IMG/VR virus record: IMGVR_UViG_3300020397_000464
Coordinates: 1-28,837 of that record
DNA: 28,837 nt
Source of the DNA: a virus
Lineage: Duplodnaviria > Caudoviricetes
Reading direction: 5' to 3' (one strand)
Each line of letters opens with the position of its first letter. Position 1 is the stretch's first letter. Made by a program: the position numbers and the translations under genes. A model generated the notes under the pieces. That model did no database searches. It had not been told where the DNA came from and saw only the letters and a list, made by a program, of their open reading frames with translations. This document shows positions 1,870-22,757 of this stretch, piece after piece.

Positions 1870-2538
1870 ATGAATATTAGTAATGAAACTCTAGACATAC
1901 TTAGAAATTTTTCAAGTATAAACTCTGGTATTACAGTTAAGGCTGGTAATGAATTGGTAACTGTTTCAGCGATGAAGAATATTTTCGCTAAAGCAGTCGT
2001 AGACGAAAGCTTCGAGAAAGACCATTCAATCTATGACCTATCTGAATATCTAGGTGCTGTATCTTTGTTTGATAGACCAAACTTTGATTTCAACGCCGAG
2101 AAAGTAACAGTATCAGAGGGCGATAATAGTGTAACTTATTATTACGCTGACCCACAAATGGTAATCTCCCCTACAAAAGAGATAACAATGCCTGAACCTG
2201 AGGTATCTTTTGACTTAGATAAAGATGTCTTAGATTCTTTATTGAAAGCTTCTTCTGTTTTATCCTTACCTGATATGGTATTATCAAGTGATGGTCAATC
2301 AGTTGTATTAACAGTAAAAGACAAAAAGAACTCAACTTCAAATGTCTTTAGTAAAACAGTAGCTCAAGGTAATGGGTCAACTTTCGAAATGTTTTTAAGA
2401 ATGGAAAACATGAAAATGATTCCTGGTGATTATACAGTTTTTGTATCATCAAAAGGTATCGCTCATTTTACAAACAGAAATGTAGCAGTTGAATACTTTA
2501 TAGCTTTAGAGCCAGATTCAACTTATAATGCTGTTTAA
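1870..2538 (+). CDS. 45: Sliding clamp (T4 gp45)
   Basis: N-terminus MNISNETLDILRNFSSINSGI, motif IYDLSEYL, 222 aa, located upstream of gp44. Confidence 0.95.
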   Translation: MNISNETLDILRNFSSINSGITVKAGNELVTVSAMKNIFAKAVVDESFEKDHSIYDLSEYLGAVSLFDRPNFDFNAEKVTVSEGDNSVTYYYADPQMVISPTKEITMPEPEVSFDLDKDVLDSLLKASSVLSLPDMVLSSDGQSVVLTVKDKKNSTSNVFSKTVAQGNGSTFEMFLRMENMKMIPGDYTVFVSSKGIAHFTNRNVAVEYFIALEPDSTYNAV

Positions 2539-3313
2539 TGTCCGAGAGATAAACAAAGATATAGCTATAAGTTTCATTGAGGAGCATCACTATACACCGA
2601 TGCTCCCAAAACTTACTAAACATTGGTTAGGTGGTTTTGTAGAAGGTGAACTAGTAGCTGTACTTACTCTTGGTTGGGGTACACAACCCAAACAAACAAT
2701 CAAAAAATTATTTCCACATCTAGATACAAAAGATTATTTTGAGATTGGTAAAATGTGCTTAACAGATGAAATGCCTAAAAATAGTGAGACACAATTTTTA
2801 AAAATGGTAAAAAAATGGATTCAAGAAAATACAGATATTGATTTACTCTATACTATGGCTGATGGTATTATGGGTAAAGCTGGGTATGTGTATCAGGCTT
2901 TCAACTTTTTTTATGGTGGAAAATTTAGAACAGCTGTTTATAGAGATACAATAACAGGAGAAAAAATACACCCACGAACAGCGAGAAAGTTATGTGAAGA
3001 GAACGCAATCTTTCTACAAAAAGAACGAGTTCATTGGTTGACTCCTGATTATATGAAAACTAAAAACTTAGAGAGAATAGATGGCTTGATGTTCAGATAT
3101 ATGTTACCAATGAACAAGAAAGCCAAGAAACATTTTAAGAAGTCTACAGTTGACTGGACTTTAAATTATCCAAAACACAAAGACATAGAGTTTTGGAAAC
3201 AAATAGAACTAGGTAAATACGAGAAGATGGCAGATTGGCCTGTATTTACTTTTGACAATATGAAATATAATAAAAAGATGTCAGGTGGTAGACTTGACGA
3301 ATTTATGACTTGA
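2528..3313 (+). CDS. Mom-like GNAT-fold putative DNA base-modification protein
   Basis: HHY, EIGKMCL..MPKNSETQFL and LYTMADG..GKAGYVYQAFNFFYGG resemble Mu Mom-family motifs. Confidence 0.65.
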   Translation: MLFNVREINKDIAISFIEEHHYTPMLPKLTKHWLGGFVEGELVAVLTLGWGTQPKQTIKKLFPHLDTKDYFEIGKMCLTDEMPKNSETQFLKMVKKWIQENTDIDLLYTMADGIMGKAGYVYQAFNFFYGGKFRTAVYRDTITGEKIHPRTARKLCEENAIFLQKERVHWLTPDYMKTKNLERIDGLMFRYMLPMNKKAKKHFKKSTVDWTLNYPKHKDIEFWKQIELGKYEKMADWPVFTFDNMKYNKKMSGGRLDEFMT

Positions 3314-3328: not shown

Positions 3329-4267
3329 ATGAGTGAAGAATTTTTATGGGTGGAGAAATATAGACCTAAAACTATTTCAGAGTGTATCTTACCTGATACT
3401 ATCAAAAATACCTTTCTTGATTTTGTAAAGAACAAAGAAATACCTAATTTATTATTATGTGGTACGGCTGGTGTTGGTAAAACTACAGTAGCTAGGGCTT
3501 TATGTAATGACTTTCAAGCTGACTATATTTTAATTAATGGTTCAGAAGAAAGAAATATTGACACACTAAGAGTTAAGATAAAGAACTTTGCTTCTACTGT
3601 ATCTTTATCTGGTGGTCCAAAGATAGTCATACTTGATGAAGCTGATTATCTAAATGCACAATCAACTCAACCAGCGTTGAGAGGTTTCATAGAAGAGTTT
3701 TCTAAAAACTGTAGATTCATATTTACTTGTAATTATAAAAACAGAATTATACCACCTCTACATTCAAGATGTAGTGTCATAGACTTTACTATTCAGAATG
3801 ACCAAAAGCCTATGATAGCTAATATGATATTTCAAAGAATACTTTTGATTCTAGGTTGGGAAAATATTAAATCAAATGACAAAGTTGTAGCTGAACTAAT
3901 TAATAAGTTCTTTCCTGATTTCAGAAGAGTTCTAAACGAACTACAAAAATATTCAGCGAGTGGTAGTATTGATTCAGGCGTATTAGCCAATCTTGACGAC
4001 CAATCTCTAACAGAAATAATTGGTTATCTCAAGAACAAAGAATTTTCTAAAATGAGAAAATGGGTAGCTATGAATATTCATAATGACCCACAAGCGATAT
4101 ATAGAAAACTATATGATAGTTTTTTCAACCTATTAGAAAACAGGTCAGTACCACAATCAATAATTATATTAAGTGATTACTCTTATAAGTCTGCATTTGT
4201 AGCCGACCAAGAAGTAAATATGGTGGCTTGTCTAACTGAATTGATGATGGAAGCTGAGTTTAAATAA
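3329..4267 (+). CDS. 44: Clamp loader large subunit (T4 gp44)
   Basis: LWVEKYRPKTI, Walker A GTAGVGKT, Walker B ILDEAD and the SRC motif. Confidence 0.97.
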   Translation: MSEEFLWVEKYRPKTISECILPDTIKNTFLDFVKNKEIPNLLLCGTAGVGKTTVARALCNDFQADYILINGSEERNIDTLRVKIKNFASTVSLSGGPKIVILDEADYLNAQSTQPALRGFIEEFSKNCRFIFTCNYKNRIIPPLHSRCSVIDFTIQNDQKPMIANMIFQRILLILGWENIKSNDKVVAELINKFFPDFRRVLNELQKYSASGSIDSGVLANLDDQSLTEIIGYLKNKEFSKMRKWVAMNIHNDPQAIYRKLYDSFFNLLENRSVPQSIIILSDYSYKSAFVADQEVNMVACLTELMMEAEFK

Positions 4268-5544
4268 TGGAACCTTTTGTTAAAAAACAATATGATGAAT
4301 ATCAGGCGAATAGAACTGAGAAAACCATATTATCTAAAGATGAACTAAGAGATAGAATTATAAAAGATTTATCTCAAGTTTCAAAAATGGGTGTTGGTGA
4401 ATATACTCTCTATCAAAAATATCTAGAAATACATATGAGATATCCGACTCAAGATATCGGTACTTTATTTGGCGAAGAGAAACAATTAGTAAATGAATCT
4501 CATTTAAAATTAATTAATGAAACAAAAAATAACATATGGTTTCCAGAAGACCCTATGGATTTTGAGAAGTTAGAACCAGAACTAGTTTATACAGATAGTC
4601 TCAAAGATAAAAGGTCAGCTGGTACACTTACTGAAAAATGGAACTGTATTCGAACATTTACCTCTACAATGAAAAATAGTTCAAACATAGGCCGTAATAT
4701 GCATTACATAGTAAGAGATAAAGTATCAGGTAAATATCTTGGTGTTATTTGTATTACAGGTGATTTTATTGATTTAACACCTAGAGATAATTACATTGGT
4801 TGGGAAAGAGAATACAAAACGAATAGTGGTAAACTAAATCATTCATGTATCGGCTCTACAATAGTACCTTTACAACCTCTTGGTTTTAATTACACAGGTG
4901 GTAAACTACTCGCTTTACTTTGTCTATCAGATGATATTCAAAAACAATGGGAAGAAAACTATGGTAATAAACTTGTAAGTGTAACAACTACATCTTTATA
5001 TGGTAAATCAAAGACAGGTGGTTTATCTCAGTATGATAGACTCAAACATTGGAAGAAAATGGGTTACAGTAAAGGCTCTTTATCATATGAGTTAACAAAA
5101 GAAACAGAAAAAGAAATGTTGAATTACGCTGAAGAACATTTTAACGAAAAGTATTTTTTACTTTATGTTGCGAAGAGAGAGAATGGCCAAACTCTAAAAA
5201 GAGACCATAGAAATAGAATGAGACAAATGATGTATTCGAAACTTGATATACCAAAAGATATTCAAAAGTCGGACCATCAAAGAGGTATTTACTATTCACC
5301 ACTTTATGATAATACCTGTGAGTTTTTAAGAGGTGAGATAGAAGAAGATAGTTTAGTTAAGTCTTTTGATACATCTACAGAAGCACTAACTGAATTATGG
5401 AAAGAGAAATACGCGAGAAAAAGAATTACAAATTTAATTAATAATGATAGGATAAATTTAGACGAAACATTATTTTATGATGATGTTTGCTTTCAAACAT
5501 GGGATGAAACGAAGGCTAAATATCTAGGTGAGGTCGGAAGATGA
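4267..5544 (+). CDS. DUF4338/DruA-like GNAT-fold protein (paralog 1)
   Basis: GRNMHYIVRD..GKYLGVI, VPLQPLGFNYTGGKLLALLC, TTTSLYGK and SQYD motifs. Confidence 0.7.
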   Translation: MEPFVKKQYDEYQANRTEKTILSKDELRDRIIKDLSQVSKMGVGEYTLYQKYLEIHMRYPTQDIGTLFGEEKQLVNESHLKLINETKNNIWFPEDPMDFEKLEPELVYTDSLKDKRSAGTLTEKWNCIRTFTSTMKNSSNIGRNMHYIVRDKVSGKYLGVICITGDFIDLTPRDNYIGWEREYKTNSGKLNHSCIGSTIVPLQPLGFNYTGGKLLALLCLSDDIQKQWEENYGNKLVSVTTTSLYGKSKTGGLSQYDRLKHWKKMGYSKGSLSYELTKETEKEMLNYAEEHFNEKYFLLYVAKRENGQTLKRDHRNRMRQMMYSKLDIPKDIQKSDHQRGIYYSPLYDNTCEFLRGEIEEDSLVKSFDTSTEALTELWKEKYARKRITNLINNDRINLDETLFYDDVCFQTWDETKAKYLGEVGR

Positions 5545-6713
5545 GCGAAAAGAGTGGAAGTAATTGGTCAAAAGGACTAATACTTGATAAAAAAGATGCG
5601 ATATACGCAGCGAATAGATTTACAGAGTATTTCAAAAACTTTGAACATATAATTGATTATTTCAAAGAAGTAAAAAAAGAACGAATAGAAAAAATGCCAC
5701 AGCCAATGTTTGGTATGTCATGGGGTGATGATTTCTTTCAGAATTGGGATATGCATCCAGAAGATATGGATTTTGAATTAAGAGATGCTACTAGTGAAAC
5801 ATTTCATCATTATCTTGAGTTAGTAGCTTCTCACCCGAATGAAGCTTCAATACCTGGTAGACATATTAGATATATGTTATATGAAAAGAATACAAACACA
5901 ATAGCTGGTTTTATCAGACTAGGTTCTCCTGTTATGTCGATAAGACCTAGAAATCAGTATCTAGACGGTGTTGTTGGTATGAATGGTAATATATCTCTAT
6001 CAACTTTTAATAAACATAGTATCAATGGTTTTATAATAGTACCAGCCCAACCATTTGGTTTTAATTATCTAGGTGGTAAATTATTAGCTGGTCTTTGTTG
6101 TACGGCAGAAGTAAAAGAACATTTAGATTCTAAGTACGATATGAACACTTGCTTGTTCGAAACAACTTCACTCTACGGTTCGAGCAAGCAGTTGTCGCAG
6201 TATGATGGTATGAAACCATTTATACGATTCAAGGGACTCACCGACAGCAGTTTCTCTCCCAATATGCATGATGGTGTGTTCCTTGACTTTAACAAATGGT
6301 TTACAGAAAAGAATGATGGCGTAAGAATTGTAGACCCAACAGTATCAGGTAGAAAGATGAAAACTCAAATGAGAATGATTTCTATCATTAAACAATCACT
6401 AAAAGAACATGATGAACAAGAATATAAAAAGTTTGTAGAGTTTCATAAAGAATCAACTAATCTAAATGAACAAAAAAGATTCTTTATATCTACATATGGT
6501 TATGAAAATGTTCCACAGATAATCAGAGGTGAAGAGACAGAGTTAAGAAAAGCCCCTAACTTTGATAGATATACTCAACAAGGTATTCTAGATTGGTGGC
6601 GTCCAAAGGCGGCTAGAAGATATGAACAACTTAAAAAAGATGGTAGACTTAAAACTAGTCTTGAAATCTGGTCTGAAACTTTTGATATAGATATATTAAG
6701 AGAAGGCAAATGA
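5541..6713 (+). CDS. DUF4338/DruA-like GNAT-fold protein (paralog 2)
   Basis: PGRHIRYMLYE..IAGFIRLGSP, VPAQPFGFNYLGGKLLAGLC, ETTSLYG and SQYDG. Shares its core with the upstream ORF. Confidence 0.7.
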   Translation: MSEKSGSNWSKGLILDKKDAIYAANRFTEYFKNFEHIIDYFKEVKKERIEKMPQPMFGMSWGDDFFQNWDMHPEDMDFELRDATSETFHHYLELVASHPNEASIPGRHIRYMLYEKNTNTIAGFIRLGSPVMSIRPRNQYLDGVVGMNGNISLSTFNKHSINGFIIVPAQPFGFNYLGGKLLAGLCCTAEVKEHLDSKYDMNTCLFETTSLYGSSKQLSQYDGMKPFIRFKGLTDSSFSPNMHDGVFLDFNKWFTEKNDGVRIVDPTVSGRKMKTQMRMISIIKQSLKEHDEQEYKKFVEFHKESTNLNEQKRFFISTYGYENVPQIIRGEETELRKAPNFDRYTQQGILDWWRPKAARRYEQLKKDGRLKTSLEIWSETFDIDILREGK

Positions 6714-16749: not shown

Positions 16750-16779
16750 TAGACAAAATACAACTTTTATGAGATCATA
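16750..16779 (+). promoter_or_regulatory. GATC-containing promoter of DNA polymerase
   Basis: TAGACA-N17-GATCAT, with ATG 6 nt downstream. Shares a 17-mer with 22383-22399. Confidence 0.6.
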
Positions 16780-22331: not shown

Positions 22332-22355
22332 AGAGGCCCTAAGGGGCCTCTTTTT
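22332..22355 (+). terminator. Rho-independent terminator
   Basis: AGAGGCCC-TAAG-GGGCCTCT followed by a T-run. Confidence 0.9.
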
Positions 22356-22368
22356 CGCGCTAAAAAGC

Positions 22369-22399
22369 TTGACTCCGAGGCTACTTTTATGAGATCATA
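22369..22399 (+). promoter_or_regulatory. GATC-containing promoter driving a non-coding region
   Basis: TTGACT-N18-GATCAT, with a 17-mer identical to the gp43 promoter. Confidence 0.65.
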
Positions 22400-22404
22400 T
22401 ATAC

Positions 22405-22747
22405 ATAATTTCGTGTGAAGGAATTCTCCGTTAAGTTGGTTGGAGGTTGAGGAGAAAAAAGACGAAGTAAGATTTCTTTTCTATATTGATTTATAGTTGG
22501 AATAAAACCTATTAAGACGAGGTAAGGCTCTTACAGGAAATCTTGAATAGTAGTCTGAAATGGTCTGATGAAATTTATGTTTAGTATCGGGATTCAGGTA
22601 AAACGAACTCACATTATAGTGGACAGGCCGAAACCACTTAGATAAAAAATAGAGCGTAAGAAATTGGGGTAGTACCCAAGAAATTGAAAAGAGACTAATT
22701 CTAAACAAAAAGCGAGGTAGTAGGGGTTGAAACCCCGCTACTTTTTT
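22405..22747 (+). ncRNA. Putative ~340-nt structured ncRNA
   Basis: Own promoter and terminator, no sizeable + strand ORF, and nested stems. Confidence 0.6.
22717..22747 (+). terminator. Rho-independent terminator overlapping the next promoter
   Basis: GTAGTAGGGGTT-GA-AACCCCGCTAC followed by TTTTTT. Confidence 0.7.
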
Positions 22748-22757
22748 GTGTATGATC
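22727..22757 (+). promoter_or_regulatory. Sigma70-type promoter with GATC
   Basis: TTGAAA-N18-TATGAT(C), with TGTG just upstream of the -10 and ATG 22763 six nt downstream. Confidence 0.65.

Follow-up and report, generated by a model that had tools for sequence, protein, structure and literature searches.

The region analysed here, 22369-22747, follows the gene for AhpC and precedes that for an NT5C-type nucleotidase in the window, the whole 28,837-nucleotide stretch of DNA under study. The window comes from a T4-like phage and encodes a clamp, clamp loaders, RegA, DNA polymerase, UvsX and the gp41 helicase, and its DNA polymerase found its closest match among cultured phages at 49%. All 20 sequencing runs containing the stretch were labelled marine or seawater. 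IscU, IscA and bS21 are encoded in related records; the IscU genes of such phages are tied to gammaproteobacteria including SAR86 in the accessible text of PMC5332604, and a host in this group, by that link, is only a guess. Elsewhere in the window, two tandem proteins matching the DruA family are encoded between the clamp-loader genes (4267-6713), a Mom-like DNA modification gene is located at 2528-3313, and the 3' part of a tRNA with anticodon TGC lies at the window's edge (1-52). A 146-kb relative, G001 (L366-L373), encodes alternative oxidase, cytochrome c, CsgG, FecR, a CHASE2-cyclase, IscU, IscA and bS21, and also a Tet/JBP oxygenase with a cytosine methylase.

In the initial annotation the region was described as a stand-alone, + strand gene for a structured RNA of ~340 nt, with its own promoter and terminator. 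Our analysis gives a probability of about 0.93 that it holds a real gene for a non-coding RNA, of which the conserved unit is ~295 nt, about 22405-22700 (Table 1). The claimed promoter, of sigma70 type, was present at 22369-98, and the + orientation was backed by an upstream promoter or tRNA in the homologs. The spacer motif of this promoter is that of the NT5C promoters of relatives. Over the -10 region, 17 nt are identical between 16763-16779, upstream of gp43, and 22383-22399, with GATCAT replacing TATAAT; the identity behind a suggested co-regulation with gp43 is real, but it is no family trait, because type 2 copies of the RNA stand behind a T4 late promoter and tRNA-Asp. As for the terminator, a terminator-like hairpin with a U tract was found at 22723-36, but it overlaps the promoter of the next gene and is missing in most homologs. 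Among the loci displayed it was confined to the window's lineage, and most homologs continue into the next promoter. The long NT5C frame starts at TTG 22727, and its ATG is 22757. The terminator-like hairpin after ahpC was missed by the terminator scan and is absent from the near-identical L002, and 22 nt are missing from the window in this 22332-22355 region relative to L001. As had been noted, no + strand ORF of at least 50 aa lies wholly inside the region; no conserved reading frame was found across the homologs, between which the frames shift.

Table 1. Features of the RNA locus, in window coordinates
Feature	Position	Strand	Evidence or remark
Hairpin and T run after ahpC, terminator-like, outside RNA gene	22332..22355	+	Read directly in sequence
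Sigma70-type early promoter (TTGACT, 18 nt, GATCAT)	22369..22398	+	9/12 matches; predicted start near 22405
Conserved non-coding RNA, ~295 nt	22405..22700	+	Full-length homologs; covariance model R1; RNA contigs in 4/4 runs examined
Junction; near-identical phages have 1012 more bases (1-kb structured RNA gene and terminator)	22408..22410	+	
P1, closes predicted four-way junction	22413-18/22609-14	+	RNAalifold; 2/6 pairs two-sided, 100% paired; sequence differs in types 2, 3
P2 hairpin, GU-rich loop with invariant GTTGG	22424-29/22451-56	+	3/6 pairs two-sided; four stem versions across types
P3 outer helix	22460-63/22553-56	+	No two-sided pairs
P3 inner helix	22469-77/22536-44	+	4/9 pairs two-sided
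P3 type-1 hairpin	22481-85/22492-96	+	Invariant
PK1 long-range pseudoknot, CTCTT with AAGAG	22528-32/22689-93	+	8 versions, 40/40 positions paired
P4	22564-68/22594-98	+	5/5 pairs two-sided on 20 distinct rows
P4 opposed pentanucleotides, candidate double T-loop	TGAAA 22569-73, CGGGA 22588-92	+	Around short inner stem
P5 hairpin, loop with conserved (G/A)CC	22618-22/22634-38	+	1/5 pairs two-sided
A-rich single-stranded linker, strongly conserved; TAGATAAAA in all four types	22639..22663	+	
P6 hairpin	22664-68/22675-79	+	2/5 pairs two-sided; another version in G001
Terminator hairpin with U tract, overlaps promoter 22727-56 of NT5C-type nucleotidase gene	22717..22756	+	Composite promoter-terminator

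Homologs were collected, as had been proposed, and relatives were found in marine viral and metagenome records. The first pattern scan gave two near-identical contigs and 4 chance matches, and the first diverged relatives were found at loose ends of DNA contigs. Finally, 57 records from marine T4-like phages contained homologs (37 viral and 20 metagenome, some of them maybe one sample filed twice), with 26 distinct cores of four types at several loci. Pattern scans and profile filtering revealed 25 distinct cores, which span 176-183 nt with near-constant spacing, and the 26th, a further type in G001, was found by the covariance model R1; the metagenome scan, in which 120 of about 160 stretches (47/64 parts) were covered, returned at least 20 homologs. 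Type 1 includes the window, L248, the L120 group, L263 and L335, at other loci and mostly behind an own sigma70-type promoter. Type 2 begins immediately behind the CCA of tRNA-Asp(GTC) in 9/9 loci scanned, with iscU downstream; these copies and their tRNA are preceded by TATAAATA, and their expression signal is a T4 late promoter, unlike the early promoter of types 1, 3 and 4. Type 3 (L150) and type 4 (G001) each have their own promoter. Searches beyond these records were negative within their range: blastn with the window region or a type-2 copy found nothing in cultured phages, R1 did not match phage C48C1, and one exact 19-base pattern scan of bacterial and archaeal genomes, which divergent cellular homologs could escape, gave 4 matches, all by chance. 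R1 found 0 further copies on 97 related viral fragments, which are 2-30% complete and too partial to show absence.

Single-sequence folding was no better than shuffles (MFE z -0.73, 21/100 shuffles as stable; z 0.15 for 22405-22716). The fold was supported by covariation, a check that had been proposed at the outset. From 9 type-1 sequences RNAalifold predicted 55 pairs, of which 13 showed two-sided change. The letters of all eight stems drawn in the initial annotation are present, and three of the eight helices showed two-sided change on the 9 close homologs: TTCTCC/GGAGAA in 3/6 pairs, AAGATTTCT/GGAAATCTT (22469-77/22536-44) in 4/9 and TTGGG/CCCAA in 1/5. CTATA/TATAG did not vary in these homologs but is absent from the other three types. 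Four helices failed, with no two-sided change and with 84.8% (TTTCGT/ACGAAG), 68.9% (GTAAG/CTTAC), 81.5% (TAGTCT/AGACTA) and 77.2% (TGGTCTG/CAGGCCG) of cells paired; their strands are taken up by competing covarying helices, and the repeat formed by the two AAGAAATTG copies is not conserved. On the same alignment, the first model had 89.7% of cells paired and 8/49 pairs two-sided, all 8 in helices common to both models, and the revised model had 98.5% of 477 cells paired and 15/53 pairs two-sided (0/500 shuffles). The revised model was partly built from the same sequences, and the cross-type tests are therefore the stronger ones.

In the overall fold, as predicted from the aligned sequences, P1 closes a four-way junction with P2, P3 and P4. 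Next come P5, the A-rich linker and P6, and the 3' strand then folds back onto the P3 loop. Its partner strand in the pseudoknot is borne by the large loop of the P3 domain (22460..22556). With fixed anchors on 23 sequences and 10,000 shuffles, which ignore relatedness, PK1 paired at 40/40 positions against a null mean of 20.4 (0/10,000), and the 7 versions of P4 paired at 28/28 (3/10,000). The 3 versions of P5 were all paired, but not above the shuffle null (1689/10,000). As there are only four sequence types, the counted cells are not independent events. Between the 3' tail and the P2 loop, 10-11 bp could form in type 2 alone, against 6-9 bp in the others; these counts carry no null, and the pairing is not put forward for the window. 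A contact of 3 bp (ACG/YGT) that fits 20 rows was set aside, as it showed one-sided change only and was not evident in G001. The view of the region as a decayed gene, spacer or assembly artefact, with which the shuffle-like single-sequence fold would agree, has already been largely refuted by the covariation tests; with frames that shift between homologs, the allele present in DNA contigs of three runs, and RNA contigs, its probability is negligible.

The RNA libraries agreed with an expressed gene. In six RNA runs, 45-57% of sampled words were present, and RNA contigs matched the RNA with 0-1 differences in 4/4 runs examined, from 4 studies, the runs having been picked for containing the stretch and the contigs bearing no strand, ends or level, with DNA carry-over possible. 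Coverage of the gene by metatranscriptome contigs, one of the checks first put forward, was thus obtained, in strandless form. Two contigs stopped where the pseudoknot strand ends, at window 22693 and 22689, and one extended to 22777; the former are a weak hint of where the RNA ends. The window's own joint (22408-10) was in no RNA contig of the 4 runs. RNA contigs covered the flanking genes sparsely or not at all, and missing cover proves nothing there.

Known RNA families were searched with the Rfam 15 covariance models at the gathering threshold. Over the whole window the single match was the tRNA at 1-52; on the RNA region 8 matches were obtained at E up to 10, all far under threshold, and on five homolog loci there was no match over the RNA. 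The Infernal search against Rfam proposed in the initial annotation thus matched no known family, and the absence of tRNA, tmRNA and RNase P hallmarks stated there was borne out, ARAGORN being negative and no Rfam RNase P match being found. For a tmRNA, ARAGORN gave no hit and no conserved tag frame was seen; for a T-box leader, the neighbours vary, no Rfam T-box model matched and the terminator is not conserved; for GOLLD or ROOL, no model matched and the size is under ~600 nt. Hammerhead, CRISPR-repeat-like and group I readings were dropped by eye, the words concerned not being conserved. The description as a novel stand-alone structured phage RNA therefore held, on covariation, on homologs with their own promoter elsewhere, on RNA-library contigs and on the lack of an Rfam match.

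Bacterial RNase P RNA, as in E. coli rnpB, has a similar size class, a long-range pseudoknot closing near the 3' end and a similar 3' element order. A putative rearranged RNase P-like ribozyme, cutting or processing tRNA precursors, would account for the 3' half, which follows the order of rnpB (hairpin, TAGAT, hairpin, ACA..AA, pseudoknot strand), for GAGGTAAG before the other pseudoknot strand of type 1, where rnpB has GAGGAAAG, and for the candidate double T-loop. However, the catalytic P4 signature is absent here: the P4 strands of rnpB, GAGGAAAGTCC and GGCTTA, were not found, the 3' pseudoknot strand lacking GGCTTA and a bulged U, and the PK1 strands vary freely in 8 versions. GAGGTAAG is gone in types 2-4, and the 5' topology differs in its nesting. 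Neither direction of search gave a model match, as the RNase P RNA models found nothing on the window (E up to 10) or the five homolog loci (E up to 1) and R1 did not match E. coli rnpB in the reverse test. Such a ribozyme is therefore quite improbable.

Like GOLLD and ROOL, the ~295-nt RNA belongs with the orphan structured RNAs of phages, as an uncatalogued family (not in Rfam 15), and no published description was found in the literature searched, which left subscription journals mostly outside its scope. Large structured phage RNAs are few and mostly unexplained. T4 rnaC and rnaD are orphan stable RNAs of about 120-140 nt beside phage tRNA genes, and are likened here by description, not by sequence. 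GOLLD and ROOL, in the accessible part of PMC12286853, are likewise large, structured and pseudoknotted phage RNAs that often lie close to tRNA genes and have no assigned function, but ROOL env-120 has 659 nt and GOLLD often >800 nt, against ~295 nt here. Candidate viral structured RNAs from the same source (IMG/VR), obtained by the same method (covariation), are listed in PMC10690425; the motifs given in the portion available are 29-151 nt, so that at most a fragment of the ~295-nt RNA could be listed there.

A second RNA accompanies the first in part of these phages. The near-identical L001 and L002 carry the 1012-base insert between the 22369-98 promoter and the ~295-nt RNA. It corresponds to L001:1451-2462, and the joint of 1450 to 2463 was found in contigs of 3/4 DNA runs (long contigs in two; the source sample may be included); the insert-less form of the window is a genuine allele. 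In 6/6 other window-like records checked, the terminator of the insert was present at the 22408-10 site. The window probably arose by deletion from an L001-like allele, given that two extra T at the junction match the U tract of the insert and that a second, 22-nt loss lies upstream. The 1-kb RNA (~950-1000 nt) matched 25 further loci (L093-L119) at several genomic sites, with its own promoter, and 14 aligned copies of 936-978 nt gave 265 pairs, 57 of them two-sided. Swappable small modules stand before its terminator, and it was well covered in RNA contigs. Its sole Rfam resemblance was to a sub-threshold YrlA-like domain (T-arm and D-loop), and blastn against cultured phages returned tRNA T-arm words only.

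The ~295-nt gene adjoins the 1-kb RNA in both orders, 3' of it in 6 records and 5' in L335, and G001 has both RNAs. This arrangement would suit a self-assembling RNA like GOLLD or ROOL, in which predicted loop-loop pairing with itself or with the 1-kb RNA yields an RNA-only complex, a behaviour with precedent in the available sections of PMC12286853. Pairing would be feasible between the P5 loop (GGCC, GACC, CTGCC) and the P2 loop (GGTT, GGTAG), and one matching double change was seen, in G001. We regard this as unlikely, however, since the loop-loop contact is one event that could be intramolecular, the size is half that of ROOL, and the window allele, without the 1-kb RNA at the site, nevertheless shows 0 differences from L001 over 352 nt.

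The downstream neighbours of the gene differ (NT5C, IscU, unknown proteins, tRNA, 1-kb RNA), and the next gene has its own promoter in 7/10 loci displayed, the late promoter of L129 being counted. A cis element, whether a leader of the next gene, a transcript that primes an origin or a selfish cassette, is for this reason very unlikely, even though most homologs lack a terminator and the RNA is flanked by composite promoter-terminators resembling PeSLs. It has no mobility gene as a neighbour, and type 2 lies behind a late promoter and tRNA. The origin-priming transcript that had been offered as an alternative does not fit several unrelated loci and a fixed pseudoknotted fold. PeSLs are promoter-terminator cassettes of T4-like phages and, as far as the accessible text of PMC4122927 describes them, resemble the locus in that a gene is flanked by similar promoters, a terminator hairpin overlaps one of these, and neighbouring modules are gained or lost; here the cargo is RNA genes, and recombination through these sequences would be the presumed route. 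The mobility and the varied neighbours of the ~295-nt gene point to action in trans.

We tentatively propose that the gene product is a stable trans-acting RNA, predicted to clamp the tRNA elbow via a double-T-loop-like module in P4. Its 5' end would come from its own promoter or from processing of the upstream tRNA-Asp, and its 3' end may be trimmed to the pseudoknot, which would then protect it. By interlocking, the opposed (A/U)GAAA and (U/C)GGGA loops might build a platform for stacking against the tRNA elbow, and a CCA end might be paired by UUGG, which is invariant in the P2 loop. The likely effect would be that tRNAs are held, protected or withheld during infection. The most specific clue lies in P4: in 23/23 sequences, (A/T)GAAA and (T/C)GGGA face each other across a short variable stem, with G2 and A5 invariant in both loops. 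According to the available part of PMC3664808, AGNNA...UGNNA defines the clamp that RNase P, T-boxes and the L1 stalk use on the tRNA elbow. Its two loops, of five bases each and with G2 and A5 invariant, lie on opposing strands with a short stem between; in RNase P the loops flank P12 as the P4 loops here flank the variable stem. The exact AGNNA...UGNNA was present in 10/23 sequences, and the window reads UGAAA...CGGGA. Against the clamp, loop 1 starts with U, not A, in 13/23 including the window and loop 2 with C in 3, also including the window, and an A/U pair of closing bases is argued to be structurally required (PMC3664808, as accessible). In addition, the first loop of this candidate module follows the stem directly, and the same P4 letters also fit a plain tandem G.A internal loop.

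The genomic context bears on the tRNA clamp in both directions. tRNA-Asp(GTC) lies directly 5' of the RNA in 9/9 type-2 loci scanned and directly 3' in G001, but no tRNA adjoins the RNA in seven loci (the window, L001, L120, L122, L150, L248 and L263), and adjacency to tRNA genes is common for unexplained phage RNAs such as GOLLD and ROOL in the accessible part of PMC12286853. No specifier loop or anticodon-pairing element was found, and the complementarity of the three conserved single strands to rRNA, tRNA and rnpB of E. coli did not exceed that of shuffles.

A decoy, sponge or anti-defence role, as suggested in the initial annotation, is possible. In a protein-binding decoy or scaffold, the rigid knot would expose the A-rich linker, which is invariant, together with the purine-rich P4 loop, as a tandem G.A loop bound by protein, to a host partner such as a defence sensor or nuclease, an RNA chaperone or the ribosome. 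The long invariant single-stranded linker, the early promoter of types 1, 3 and 4, and a patchy, mobile distribution as for accessory genes (0 further copies in the 97 related fragments) would be consistent with this function. We consider it doubtful nevertheless, because no partner gene accompanies the RNA, no reverse transcriptase, Ro60 or Hfq family was found in the 109 G001 ORFs scanned (tail-region and short ORFs being left out), and the late expression of type 2 is a poor fit to an early anti-defence role.

With a well-supported fold, the ~295-nt RNA is small enough for transcription, probing and imaging, and natural alleles exist with the ~295-nt RNA, the 1-kb RNA, or both. If tRNA binding is true, the RNA would be a trans-acting tRNA clamp that falls outside the three classes described so far, and would give abundant marine phages a new means of acting on host translation. 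If it is false, an uncatalogued pseudoknotted family still travels with a second uncatalogued RNA of 1 kb.

Several further elements were observed in the related phages. At the same gp41/NT5C site, L004:2640-3010 is another ORF-free stretch of ~370 nt with a promoter upstream (fold z -1.89) and no homolog among the loci compared; it bears a short-word likeness to the RNA region, yet no profile or R1 match. In L010:2795-2990, L011, L023:2765-2990 and L024, this site holds an intergenic element of ~200-230 nt, driven by a promoter and containing a repeated unit. At L150:1835-1898 (-) and L129:2745-2866 (+), the glutamine riboswitch was matched with scores over the Rfam threshold. In type-2 loci (e.g. 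L129:1705-1778 and L134:1241-1314), the body of tRNA-Asp(GTC) is kept while several differing anticodon stems occur among near-identical phages.
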